From a virus (lineage: Duplodnaviria > Heunggongvirae > Uroviricota > Caudoviricetes): 28,806 nt of DNA. The position numbers and the translations under genes were made by a program. The notes beneath the pieces are model-generated. The model saw nothing but the letters and a program-made list of their open reading frames with translations, was not told where the DNA came from and ran no database searches. Positions 5,982 to 9,495 of this stretch are shown here, one piece after another (the stretch's first letter is position 1; the number at the start of each line of letters is the position of its first letter). The stretch lies in IMG/VR virus record IMGVR_UViG_2529292922_000011; one strand, given 5' to 3'.

Positions 5982-7919
5982 GTGACTCTTAAACGGGCCT
6001 GTTCCCTGCTGACGGTGAAATCCTTCAGTGAGGATGAACGAGTGATCACCGGGATTGCGTCAACGCCTTCTCCGGATCGGGATGGTGACATCCTGGAGCC
6101 GGAGGGCGCGGAGTTTGGCAGTGCGATCCCGTTTCTCTGGCAGCATGACCATTCCCGCCCGGTGGGGCAGTGTACGGTGCGCCGGGTCAGCGAAGGGCTG
6201 GAAATCACGGCAACACTGGTGAAGCCCGTACCGGATATGCCGTCGCAACTGGCTGCCCGGCTGGATGAGGTCTGGGCGGCCATTAAGACCGGGCTGGTCA
6301 GGGGGCTGTCCGTGGGCTTCCGTCCCCATGAATACACCTTTCTGGACGGAGGCGGACTGCATTTTCTGCGCTGGGAACTGATGGAGGTGTCTGCCGTCAC
6401 CGTGCCCGCGAATGCGGAATGCACCATCCGGACCATTAAATCTTACGACCGCCCGTTTTCTGCCGCGTCCGGCAACCGGAAACCGGTGGTGAAAATCGCA
6501 TCTTCTGCCGGCGCTGCGGCACAGTCAACAACCGTTTTTCATAAGGAAAAGACCATAATGAATATTGGCGAACAGATTAAAAGTTTTGAAAACAAGCGTG
6601 CAGCGCTGGCAGCCTCCCTTGAGGAGGTCATGACCAAAGCCGCAGAGGAAGGGCGCACGCTGGATGTGGAGGAGGAAGAGCATTACGACAACACCGCAGC
6701 GGAAATCCGTCAGGTGGATGCGCACCTGAAGCGCCTGCGTGAACTGGAAGCCGGTAAGGCCGCCACGGCGCAGCCGGTGAAACAGGCCGGTAACGGGAAT
6801 GTGGCCGCGGTGGCTTCTGCGCCGGTGATCCGTGTGGAGCAGAAACTGGATAAGGGGATTGGCTTCGCCCGCTTTGCCAAATCGCTGGCTGCGGCTAAAG
6901 GCGTCCGATCTGAAGCCCTGGAAGTGGCCCGTCGTCAGTATCCGGATGACAGTCGTCTGCATCATGTCCTGAAATCGGCAGTGGGCGCGGGGACCACCAC
7001 GGATCCGCAGTGGGCAGGCAGCCTGTCTGAATATCAGGAATACGCACAGGACTTTATTGATTACCTGCGTCCGCAGACCATTATCGGGCGATTTGGTCAG
7101 GGCGGGATCCCTGCACTTCGTCAGGTGCCGTTCAATATCCGTGTGCACGCCCAGGTGTCCGGCGGTGCTGCCGGCTGGGTGGGTGAGGGTAAGGCAAAAC
7201 CCCTGACGAAGTTTGATTTTGAATCCATCACCTTCAGTCATGCGAAGGTGTCGGCCATTGCGGTACTGACGGAAGAATTGATCCGTTTTTCCAGTCCGGC
7301 TGCTGATGCACTGGTCCGTAATGCGCTGGCGGAAGCGGTGGTGGCGCGTCTGGATACAGACTTTGTGGACCCGAAAAAAGCCGCAGTGGCAGATGTCTCC
7401 CCGGCGTCCATCACCCATGATGTGAAGGGCACGGCATCAACCGGTAACCCGGATGCGGATGCAGAGGCTGCGTTTGGACAGTTTGTGGCAGCAAACCTGC
7501 AGCCCACCGGTGCGGTCTGGCTGATGTCCAGCACCAATGCCCTGGCACTGTCCATGCGTAAAAATGCGCTGGGTCAGAAGGAATACCCGGACATGACCCT
7601 GCTGGGTGGCTCCTTCCAGGGGCTGCCGGTGATTGTCTCCCAGTACGTGGGTGACCAGCTGGTGCTGGTGAATGCCCCGGATATTTATCTGGCGGATGAC
7701 GGAGGCGTGGCAGTGGATATGTCCCGCGAGGCATCACTGGAAATGCAGTCTGAGCCGACCGGCGACAGTACCACGCCGTCCCCGGTGGAGCTGGTTTCCA
7801 TGTTCCAGACAGGCAGCGTGGCCATCCGTGCGGAGCGCTGGATCAACTGGCGTCGTCGCCGTACCGCGGCGGTGGCGGTGATCACCGGAGTGAACTACGG
7901 CAGTGCGTCCGGCGGCTGA
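5982..7919 (+). CDS. Prohead protease - major capsid protein fusion (HK97-type)
   Basis: N-terminal ~170 aa carry prohead-protease motifs (GIASTPSPDRDGDIL, GLSVGF); from residue ~193 a coiled-coil delta domain followed by an HK97-fold capsid domain. One uninterrupted frame of 645 aa; internal AAGGAAAAG RBS plus ATG at 6558. Confidence 0.85.
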   Translation: MTLKRACSLLTVKSFSEDERVITGIASTPSPDRDGDILEPEGAEFGSAIPFLWQHDHSRPVGQCTVRRVSEGLEITATLVKPVPDMPSQLAARLDEVWAAIKTGLVRGLSVGFRPHEYTFLDGGGLHFLRWELMEVSAVTVPANAECTIRTIKSYDRPFSAASGNRKPVVKIASSAGAAAQSTTVFHKEKTIMNIGEQIKSFENKRAALAASLEEVMTKAAEEGRTLDVEEEEHYDNTAAEIRQVDAHLKRLRELEAGKAATAQPVKQAGNGNVAAVASAPVIRVEQKLDKGIGFARFAKSLAAAKGVRSEALEVARRQYPDDSRLHHVLKSAVGAGTTTDPQWAGSLSEYQEYAQDFIDYLRPQTIIGRFGQGGIPALRQVPFNIRVHAQVSGGAAGWVGEGKAKPLTKFDFESITFSHAKVSAIAVLTEELIRFSSPAADALVRNALAEAVVARLDTDFVDPKKAAVADVSPASITHDVKGTASTGNPDADAEAAFGQFVAANLQPTGAVWLMSSTNALALSMRKNALGQKEYPDMTLLGGSFQGLPVIVSQYVGDQLVLVNAPDIYLADDGGVAVDMSREASLEMQSEPTGDSTTPSPVELVSMFQTGSVAIRAERWINWRRRRTAAVAVITGVNYGSASGG

Positions 7920-8130
7920 GTCTGATAAGGAGGACGGGAGGCGTGCGCCTCCCGTAACAGGTTATGGCAAAGATCCGATATCTGCAGGGCACGCATGATG
8001 CCCGGGCCGGGGATATCCGTGATGTGGCACAGCCGTGTGCGGAGGTGCTGGTTCGCCTGGGAAAGGCGGAGTACATCACGGTGCGACGTCCGGCAGGTCA
8101 GAAAAAGAAACGAGATGCGGAGCATGGCGA

Positions 8131-9495
8131 ATGTGGAACCTTTTACGGCGAACCCGAAAAAACCAGAAATCAGGACGTGACGTAAGAGAGGTGGGCTGGA
8201 CCAGCCTGTTTCAGGCGGTGGCTGAGCCCTTTTCCGGCGCCTGGCAGCAGGGCGTGAAAGCCGATCCTGAAGCCGTCCTCTCCTTTCATGCGGTGTTTGC
8301 ATGTATTTCGCTGATATCCCAGGATATCGCCAAAATGCGGCTGCGTCTTATGCAGACGGATGCGCATGGGATACGCAGGGAAACGCGCCGGGGGGATATT
8401 GCCCGCCTCTGTCGTCGTCCCAACGCCCAGCAGAACCGCATCCAGTTTTTTGAACTGTGGCTGAACGCCAAACTGCGTCACGGCAATACGGTGGTGCTGA
8501 AAATCCGTAATGCCCGGGGGCAGATCAAAGAACTGCGTATTCTGGACTGGAGCCGGGTTGAACCTCTGGTGGCGGATGACGGCGAGGTGTTCTACCGCAT
8601 CACGCCGGACCGGAACTGCGGGATCACGGAGGCGGTGACGGTGCCTGCCCGGGAAGTGATCCACGACCGGTTTAACTGTTTTTTTCATCCGCTTATAGGA
8701 TTGCCGCCGGTGTATGCCGCCGGGCTGGCGGCCACGCAGGGGCATCATATTCAGGAAAATTCGACGTCTTTTTTCAGAAATGGTGGCAGGCCGTCCGGGG
8801 TGATTGAGATCCCCGGCAGTATTACGGAAGAAAATGCGAAAAAACTGAAGAGCAACTGGGACAGCGGGTATACAGGCGAAAATGCGGGGAAAACGGCCAT
8901 TCTGAGCAACGGGGCAAAATACAACCCCACGACGTTTTCACCTGTGGATGCGCAGACGGTGGAACAACTGAAGATGACCGCTGAAATTGTCTGTTCGGTG
9001 TTCCGTGTCCCGGCCTACAAGATTGGCGTGGGACAACCGCCTTCCAGTGACAACGTGGAGGCGCTGGAGCAGCAGTATTATTCCCAGTGCCTGCAGACGC
9101 TGATTGAGTCCATTGAACTGTTACTGGATGAGGCGCTGGAAACGGGGGAAAACGAGAGTACAGAATTTGATGTCACCACGCTGCTGAGAATGGACAGTGA
9201 GCGGCGCATGAAAACGCTGGGGGATGCGGTGAAAAATACGCTTCTCACGCCCAATGAGGCCCGTAAACGGGAGAACCTGCCGCCCCTGGCCGGCGGTGAT
9301 GCACTGTATCTTCAGCAGCAGAACTACAGTCTGGAGGCGCTGTCCCGTCGTGATGCCCGTGAGGATCCGTTCTCGTCTGCCGGGAAAACAGTTTCATCAC
9401 AGCTGCCTGACGGCGCATCTGACGGTAATAAGGCAATCAGTGAAACAGAGCATGATGCGGTGAAAGCGATGTTCAGGGGGATACTGAGAAAATGA
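8131..9495 (+). CDS. Portal protein (HK97 family)
   Basis: Portal-type motifs (AVFACISLISQDIAKMRL, HGNTVVLKI, FFRNGGRPSGVIEIPG, ENAGKTAILSNGAKY, VFRVPAYKIGV). Start is uncertain: ATG 8131 (GGAG RBS) chosen; GTG 8035 and GTG 8191 are in-frame alternatives. Confidence 0.8.
   Translation: MWNLLRRTRKNQKSGRDVREVGWTSLFQAVAEPFSGAWQQGVKADPEAVLSFHAVFACISLISQDIAKMRLRLMQTDAHGIRRETRRGDIARLCRRPNAQQNRIQFFELWLNAKLRHGNTVVLKIRNARGQIKELRILDWSRVEPLVADDGEVFYRITPDRNCGITEAVTVPAREVIHDRFNCFFHPLIGLPPVYAAGLAATQGHHIQENSTSFFRNGGRPSGVIEIPGSITEENAKKLKSNWDSGYTGENAGKTAILSNGAKYNPTTFSPVDAQTVEQLKMTAEIVCSVFRVPAYKIGVGQPPSSDNVEALEQQYYSQCLQTLIESIELLLDEALETGENESTEFDVTTLLRMDSERRMKTLGDAVKNTLLTPNEARKRENLPPLAGGDALYLQQQNYSLEALSRRDAREDPFSSAGKTVSSQLPDGASDGNKAISETEHDAVKAMFRGILRK

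Follow-up and report, generated by a model that had tools for sequence, protein, structure and literature searches.

A fused prohead protease-capsid gene in a lambdoid Escherichia coli prophage and its probable internal start for the capsid protein

We analysed a fused head-assembly gene located at positions 5982-7919 of the window, i.e. the whole 28,806-nucleotide stretch of IMG/VR record IMGVR_UViG_2529292922_000011. The gene belongs to a lambdoid Escherichia coli prophage; it joins a prohead protease, a delta-like scaffolding region and a major capsid protein in one reading frame, and it precedes the portal gene. An original prediction made from the sequence had proposed that an internal start within this frame could also produce the capsid protein alone. 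Comparison with related loci supports this proposal through split relatives whose capsid gene begins at the same place, through a conserved start codon and Shine-Dalgarno (SD) sequence, and through the open, low-GC site in which they lie. We consider it quite probable that the internal start also yields the capsid protein alone, so that two products would be made from one frame. The fusion arrangement itself is neither unusual nor new, and belongs to a very large, annotated and catalogued family.

The fused gene and its internal start

A scan of the window for open reading frames (ORFs) found a single open frame on the plus strand, running from the GTG at 5982 to the stop codon at 7917-7919 (645 codons). 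This GTG had the top translation-initiation (TIR) score among the 50 in-frame start candidates of the fusion ORF. The parts of the gene are listed below with their predicted masses, amino acid (aa) numbers being those of the full-length protein and pLDDT values those of an AlphaFold2 (AF2) model.

5971-5976, plus strand: SD sequence AGGAGG of the full-length product, anti-SD pairing -10.3 kcal/mol
5982-7919, plus strand: fused gene for prohead protease, delta domain and major capsid protein, 645 aa, 69.0 kDa, GTG start
6030-6443, plus strand: S78 prohead serine protease domain, aa 17-154, beta-rich, pLDDT 94-98
6144-6146, plus strand: codon of the predicted catalytic His55, aligned with H65 of HK97 gp4
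6309-6311, plus strand: codon of the predicted catalytic Ser110, aligned with S114 of HK97 gp4
6444-6557, plus strand: linker, aa 155-192, hypervariable and predicted disordered, pLDDT 33-51
6542-6551, plus strand: internal SD-like motif TAAGGAAAAG, anti-SD pairing -6.2 kcal/mol
6558-6989, plus strand: delta-like scaffolding region, aa 193 to about 336, with AF2 helices 195-222, 229-261 and then 293-331
6558-7919, plus strand: proposed nested gene, putatively expressed, for the delta domain plus capsid protein alone, 453 aa, 48.2 kDa from Met193
6990-7916, plus strand: capsid domain with the HK97 fold, approximately aa 337-645, with a mass of about 32.7 kDa if cleavage falls at about aa 337

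Relatives were retrieved by a HMMER search of 1.84 billion representatives, which gave 1,197 matches with E <= 1e-30. The 149 top representatives (38-57% identity), each standing for a cluster at 50% identity, were aligned; 143 were fused and 6 were capsid-only, so that 144 of 150 are fused when the window protein is included.

The single 645-aa frame with protease, delta-like and capsid domains proved intact, and was matched by both Pfam and NCBIfam. The Pfam family PF04586 (Peptidase_S78, Caudovirus prohead serine protease) was detected on aa 48-152 with 34.7 bits for a cutoff of 21, Pfam Phage_capsid on aa 386-635 (53.1 bits, cutoff 24.2) and NCBIfam TIGR01554 (major_cap_HK97) on aa 204-584 (78.1 bits, cutoff 27.5), position 3 of the latter model being aligned at aa 204. 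The NCBIfam equivalog TIGR01543 scored 46.5 bits, under its cutoff of 59. On these profile scores, the protease is a member of the S78 family at the domain level and not a trusted equivalog. His55 is kept in 144 of the 144 fused representatives and Ser110 in 143, and the protease looks active as far as can be predicted from these two residues. A conserved AAxG motif follows the catalytic domain in the homologue alignments.

The AF2 model was built from the 150-sequence alignment and had a mean pLDDT of 86.3; a model from a shallow alignment of 17 close homologues had a pLDDT of 39 and was unusable. Disorder is predicted at aa 155-190, the first delta helix starts from aa 195, and the delta-like helices 195-261 and 293-331 are predicted with high confidence. 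Met193 thus lies at a domain boundary. The linker is also the most variable and indel-rich stretch in the alignment of the 17 close homologues. The C-terminal end of the delta region may be placed around aa 336 from a weak alignment to the K103/S104 cleavage region of HK97, with the delta/capsid cleavage predicted near aa 331-337. Sequence matches of the capsid part were weak or non-significant: a search of Protein Data Bank (PDB) sequences retrieved only a weak capsid match (Bxb1, 9d9w, E = 0.0017), and BLASTP gave no significant match between the capsid part and HK97 gp5, the capsid sequence being too diverged. Comparison of folds was therefore needed, and it assigned the HK97 fold to the C-terminal part and the fold of assemblin, the herpesvirus protease, to the protease domain.

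The ribosome-binding-site-like motif and the ATG at codon 193 on which the internal start had been proposed are both present, with AAGGAAAAG at 6543-6551 and the in-frame ATG at 6558-6560. Relatives with separate genes start their capsid gene at this position. In Diaphorobacter (locus L028, MKTIIEQISDLENTR) and Brucella (locus L029, MATYAEQIAAYENKR), the capsid gene lies in another frame and begins at the Met193 position. In two metagenome loci (L138 and L187), a single stop codon in the linker separates the two genes without a change of frame, again with the capsid start at the Met193 position; their sequences are 'ctc TAA gga aac acc GTG' and 'agg TAA atc cag ATG'. Finally, five stand-alone capsid representatives of 456-478 aa have their residue 1-5 aligned to query residue 193-196.

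The start codon is also retained where the frame is fused. Met193 is invariant in the 17 close homologues, right after their most variable segment, and the 144 fused representatives have Met (130), Val (13) or Leu (1) as the equivalent residue. At the nucleotide level, the start-equivalent codon is ATG in 54 of 59 distinct metagenome contexts, all 5 Val codons being GTG, and it is TTG in one genome locus. An SD core, defined as AGGA, GGAG or GAGG with a spacing of 6-11 nt to the start codon, was found at -18 to -5 in 72 of 85 distinct contexts (85%) versus 7.2% of background codons of the same genes, and many loci carry the canonical GAGGAGGG or AAGGAGGG upstream of the internal start, with pairing energies of -10 to -12 kcal/mol. 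The SD nucleotides are kept across changing codon phases, as in AAA GGA (K-G), AAG GAA (K-E), CCT GAG GAC (P-E-D), CAA GAG GTA (Q-E-V) and CCC GAG GAG GGC (P-E-E-G). Within E. coli, the 36 nt upstream occur in four haplotypes, in which both flanks of TAAGGAAAAG vary and TAAGGAAAAG and the ATG never do. Start codon and SD sequence survive in the hypervariable linker across relatives with 38-77% identity.

The segment from -30 to +12 around the internal start is on average the least structured and lowest-GC one of the gene. Its minimum free energy (MFE) is -2.7 versus -9.2 kcal/mol in genome loci and -5.1 versus -10.1 kcal/mol in metagenome loci, for GC contents of 0.35 versus 0.56 and 0.45 versus 0.60, respectively. 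Using a simple score formed by SD pairing plus openness, the internal start ranked first among the approximately 34 in-frame ATG, GTG and TTG codons in 67 of 78 loci. A conserved in-frame internal initiation region, made of start codon, SD sequence and open mRNA structure, was found here, as expected of a nested gene pair of the lambda C/Nu3 type.

We infer internal initiation, co-assembly, product ratio and cleavage sites of the fusion products as follows. Ribosomes at GTG 5982 would produce the 69-kDa protease-delta-capsid fusion, and ribosomes at ATG 6558, behind TAAGGA in an unstructured A-rich stretch, the 48-kDa delta-capsid protein. Both products would co-assemble in the prohead via their common delta and capsid parts, the fusion subunits bringing a fixed fraction of covalently tethered protease inside. 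The covalent link would stand in for the C-terminal capsid-targeting tail of the free HK97 protease, and the relative strength of the two start sites would set the protease:capsid ratio. Once assembly is over, the protease would cut off both itself and the delta regions, and the capsid protein would mature to about 33 kDa.

The start codon of the full-length product is GTG in the E. coli lineage and ATG, behind a similar GGAGG, in every other genus examined. The weaker GTG start would give a lower fusion:capsid ratio in E. coli.

Spread of the fusion and known head genes

The region 3600-11385 of the window shares 99.9% identity with a prophage of the EPEC strain E. coli O127:H6 E2348/69, without any difference inside the fusion ORF, and the head module is 96-98% identical in the Stx-converting phages 2851 (one of the long-tailed Stx phages), YYZ-2008, 1717 and Stx2a_WGPS6. 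At least 80% of this 7.9-kb module is carried by 1,237 of 5,426 complete E. coli genomes. It also occurs in 96 phage records, several of which label the fusion ORF 'major head protein/prohead protease' or 'proteinase'; the RefSeq label in E2348/69 is 'phage major capsid protein'. The protein cluster of the fusion at 90% identity comprises 9,916 sequences, and Salmonella, Enterobacter, Klebsiella, Serratia, Kosakonia and Pantoea have fused proteins of 644-648 aa with 73-78% identity. When one genome per species was scanned, unbroken fused ORFs turned up in Enterobacterales and, with identities of about 48%, in Rhizobium, Methylobacterium, Haematobacter, Brucella and Dichotomicrobium, and the reading frame of the fusion stays open in relatives down to about 40% identity. 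The 626-position profile of PHROG 617 spans the whole fusion (aa 1-639, 871 bits). A scan of viral contigs returned only E. coli copies with 96-100% identity, of use only for the within-species haplotypes. Judging from these sequence comparisons, the fusion architecture is real, ancient, abundant and already catalogued, and its gene order is known.

In three proteins from outside the window (P0001, P0123 and P0132, about 1,080-1,094 aa), a large-terminase domain is joined to the protease-capsid fusion; P0001 combines PF03354, PF04586 and PF05065 in one protein. This suggests occasional loss of the stop codon of the large terminase gene, or errors of assembly or gene calling.

The protease of the fusion is of the same family as that of HK97, with 29% identity to gp4 (BLASTP, E = 4e-9) and a conserved His/Ser dyad: Ser110 falls on S114, and His55 on H65 after a one-residue shift of the BLAST alignment. 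H65 and S114 are the residues that we take to be the catalytic His and Ser of gp4. Both systems also have an N-terminal helical delta-like scaffolding region, predicted in the case of the fusion, in place of a separate scaffold protein. They differ in gene arrangement. The HK97 order given in the original prediction (portal, then protease, then capsid protein, each with a gene of its own) was confirmed in NC_002167, whereas here one protease-capsid ORF comes before the portal gene. They differ as well at the end of the protease, where approximately 63 C-terminal residues of gp4 (residues ~163-225) have no counterpart in the fusion, which has 36 residues predicted to be disordered there instead. 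This segment of gp4 reportedly holds a capsid-targeting signal. Because the fusion has no counterpart of gp4 163-225 and its linker leads straight into the delta region, we infer that the covalent linkage replaces the targeting tail.

Nested head genes are found in phage lambda, where C (4418-5737) and nu3 (5132-5737) form an in-frame pair with a common stop codon and frame. The long product is a protease joined to the scaffold, and the short one is the scaffold alone, made from an internal start. Lambda differs from the present case in that C is an S49 peptidase, of another protease family than the S78 fusion, and in that its capsid protein gpE does not include the scaffold Nu3, whereas the scaffold in the fusion is the delta domain of the capsid protein itself. 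Its gene order is portal, C/Nu3, D, E. In herpesviruses too the scaffold is separate from the major capsid protein, unlike the delta domain of the fusion, and the short product of the UL26/UL26.5 pair is made from its own transcript and not from an internal ribosome-binding site. In this pair, protease and scaffold are joined, and a shorter product, in frame and 3'-coterminal, provides the bulk of the scaffold (PMC4498786). By analogy, the fusion likely works on the principle of lambda C/Nu3 and herpesvirus UL26/UL26.5. As nested head genes are already known, the nested-start reading extends them naturally and is tidy rather than surprising.

Other fusions of a protease with a capsid protein have been named. 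PHROG 4523, 'major head and protease protein', is likewise one ORF with an N-terminal protease and a C-terminal capsid part, and 'capsid and protease fusion' is a routine SEA-PHAGES label in Arthrobacter clusters AN and AU and Microbacterium cluster EE. NCBIfam NF045541 (scaf_prot_MCP2; prohead protease/major capsid protein fusion protein) covers another, narrow family, in which membership was rejected with 54 bits for a cutoff of 525 and a match limited to the protease part. The Paracoccus fusions combine a ClpP (S14) protease with a Mu gpT-type capsid protein, unlike the S78 fusion, and the study describing them credits Cheng et al. 2004 with earlier fusion cases (PMC6536676). The literature that we found on annotated protease/capsid fusions does not discuss an internal start, and our literature search, limited in reach, returned no report of internal initiation in a protease-capsid fusion. 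Protease fusions are not mentioned in the actinobacteriophage capsid dendrogram paper, and the fusions in the paper on type I cyclic-oligonucleotide-based antiphage signalling systems (CBASS) are protease-scaffold and Ig-like CD-NTase fusions, not protease-capsid ones.

Alternative explanations

Several points weigh against a second product from the frame. The internal SD of the window is only moderate (-6.2 kcal/mol, with TAAGGA 10 nt from the ATG), and ATG 6558 ranks third of the 50 in-frame candidates, after the annotated start and GTG 7713. The low GC content of the site could partly be a product of the Lys/Asn-rich linker. In most relatives the upstream start has the stronger SD, so that the ratio could favour the fusion, and the product ratio is not predictable. 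The Val and Leu calls at the start position were made in protein-only representatives by a window search, in which a chance Val is often expected, and the loci are phylogenetically related, so that the counts overstate independent events. The prophage copy is probably defective, producing no infectious virions, through an insertion sequence (IS) in the head-closure gene, the fusion gene being intact. Lastly, fully fused shells are physically possible: the encapsulin of Pyrococcus furiosus has cargo on every subunit. The strong upstream SD, the third rank of the internal site and the effect of the linker on GC content would all suit a head made of the fusion only, each capsid subunit bringing a protease with it in the manner of cargo-fused encapsulins. 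On this view, the Met codon and the SD-like motif would be left over from an ancestral gene boundary, arise from the composition of a flexible Lys/Gly/Glu-rich linker, or form a ribosome-pausing element that aids the folding of the protease. Relics should decay, however, whereas start codon and SD persist over 144 clusters (38-54% identity) in the least conserved segment of the protein. Furthermore, the substitutes at the start codon are the alternative starts GTG and TTG, the motif is kept as nucleotides over differing codon phases and residues, and variants with a single stop codon are ordinary gene pairs with the same start. We regard a fusion-only head as unlikely, while giving it real consideration.

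The fusion could also be the sole translation product and be divided afterwards, autoproteolysis of the linker freeing the protease and the delta-capsid protein before or during assembly. Herpesvirus pUL26 frees its protease by autocleavage, and the conserved AAxG motif after the catalytic domain is a possible cleavage site. Such processing is compatible with a nested start rather than exclusive of it. As the only mechanism it is improbable to a high degree: it leaves the conserved SD, the ATG/GTG/TTG codon and the structure-free segment unexplained, and cleavage before assembly would lose the tether in a fusion that has no equivalent of the C-terminal targeting segment of gp4. A last possibility is that a protease gene and a capsid gene, both normal, were joined by the loss of a stop codon or by a frameshift between them, through error or decay. 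Split relatives do exist, and one-base homopolymer differences with E2348/69 occur elsewhere in the window, at 5958 and 9475. Against this, the same frame is present in the 1,237 complete E. coli genomes and in the cluster of 9,916 sequences, Salmonella, Enterobacter, Klebsiella, Serratia and Alphaproteobacteria have fused frames as well, 144 of the 150 distant representatives carry the fusion, and the ORF is identical in E2348/69. We rejected the artefact or pseudogene explanation, which thousands of independent assemblies exclude in practice. Internal initiation at ATG 6558 in an intact fused gene is the reading that we retain as the probable one.

The surrounding head module and what the nested gene would mean

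The genes and signals next to the fused gene are the following.

4258-5919, plus strand: large terminase (TerL) gene, PF03354 plus PF20441, directly upstream of the fusion gene
5944-5961, plus strand: terminator-like hairpin, then a T-run, between TerL and the fusion gene, directly upstream of the ribosome-binding site of the fusion
7964-8185, plus strand: conserved 73-aa ORF, phrog_829 (E = 3.7e-39), overlapping the portal start by 55 nt
8131-9495, plus strand: portal gene, PF04860 (E = 1.9e-81) and TIGR01537 (E = 4.9e-105), start as in the RefSeq annotation

The PF04860 and TIGR01537 matches agree with the placement of the portal downstream of the fusion that had been read from the sequence. 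Its annotated start, ATG 8131, lies within a longer ORF opening at GTG 8035. The synteny comparison called for in the original prediction was made on related loci with enough flanking DNA, Alpha- and Betaproteobacterial loci included. Essentially all of them keep the fusion before the portal, in the order small terminase (TerS), TerL, protease-capsid, 73-aa ORF, portal, repeat protein, head-tail connector and head closure. As judged from this conserved order, it is a trait of the lineage, and not a local rearrangement, that the portal follows the capsid gene. The 73-aa ORF is hypothetical in the E2348/69 annotation and occurs in most Enterobacterales relatives at 45-58% identity; Pfam and NCBIfam scans gave no match for it.

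The hairpin at 5944-5961 has a 7-bp stem with 4 G-C pairs. Relatives show the same T-run plus GGAGG context ahead of the fusion gene, and the HK97 annotation likewise marks a putative terminator just before its protease gene. At 5958, the T-run is one T shorter in the window than in E2348/69. The stop codon of the capsid gene is followed by a strong SD-like TAAGGAGG at 7926-7933 and by a perfect 8-bp hairpin, GGGAGGCG-TG-CGCCTCCC, at 7936-7953, which has no T-run; then comes ATG 7964 of the 73-aa ORF. This second hairpin could lend stability to the capsid mRNA, or draw the distant SD near ATG 7964.

The boundary between the portal and the following gene (9473-9495) shows a polymorphism in the length of a G-run, with a one-G difference between the window and E2348/69. 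With the five Gs of the window (G5), the portal stop at 9495 and the start of a 407-aa ORF at 9492 overlap in ATGA. E2348/69 and phage 2851 have six Gs (G6), by which portal and downstream gene become one frame for an 860-aa 'portal' protein. Of the close E. coli copies whose flanks are identical, 24 have G6 and 7 have G5, and more distant Enterobacterales loci have the split arrangement. A second head gene of the module thus also switches between fused and split forms. The 407-aa protein (9492-10715) has a tandem repeat at 9717-10249, made up of 3.3 copies of a 162-nt (54-aa) unit with 95% matching, and a weak CBM_5_12-like match near its C-terminus (aa 357-379). PHROGs lists it under 'portal protein' because of the fused E. 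coli forms only. Further downstream, the head-closure gene is broken just past 11385 by an IS element at about 11386-12750, whose 429-aa transposase ORF (11397-12686) lies on the minus strand. The alignments with E2348/69 and the other close matches reach no further than 11385, and none of the 5,426 complete E. coli genomes covers the IS junction in the head-closure gene.

The protease-capsid fusion genes of the whole large family might in general be nested gene pairs, with the protease-tethered subunit in the minority; we put this wider reading forward tentatively, as a possibility that we do not favour. It would concern at least 144 clusters at 50% identity, in Gamma-, Alpha- and Betaproteobacteria. 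Annotation pipelines name one product, 'phage major capsid protein', by which the protease and probably a second, nested product are hidden. If the nested-start reading is true and unreported, annotation would change to one gene with two products. Covalent tethering to a subset of capsid subunits would constitute a third route for delivering the protease into the prohead, next to the targeting tail of HK97 and the fusion with a separate scaffold in lambda and herpesviruses. The protease dose per head would be set by the strengths of two starts, which would make a simple, genetically tunable system for the study of protease loading into proheads. Fused and split forms differ by one stop codon or frameshift and would interconvert by single-base changes in the linker. 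They offer a clean natural example of how the gene boundaries of a head module shift while the internal start site is kept.

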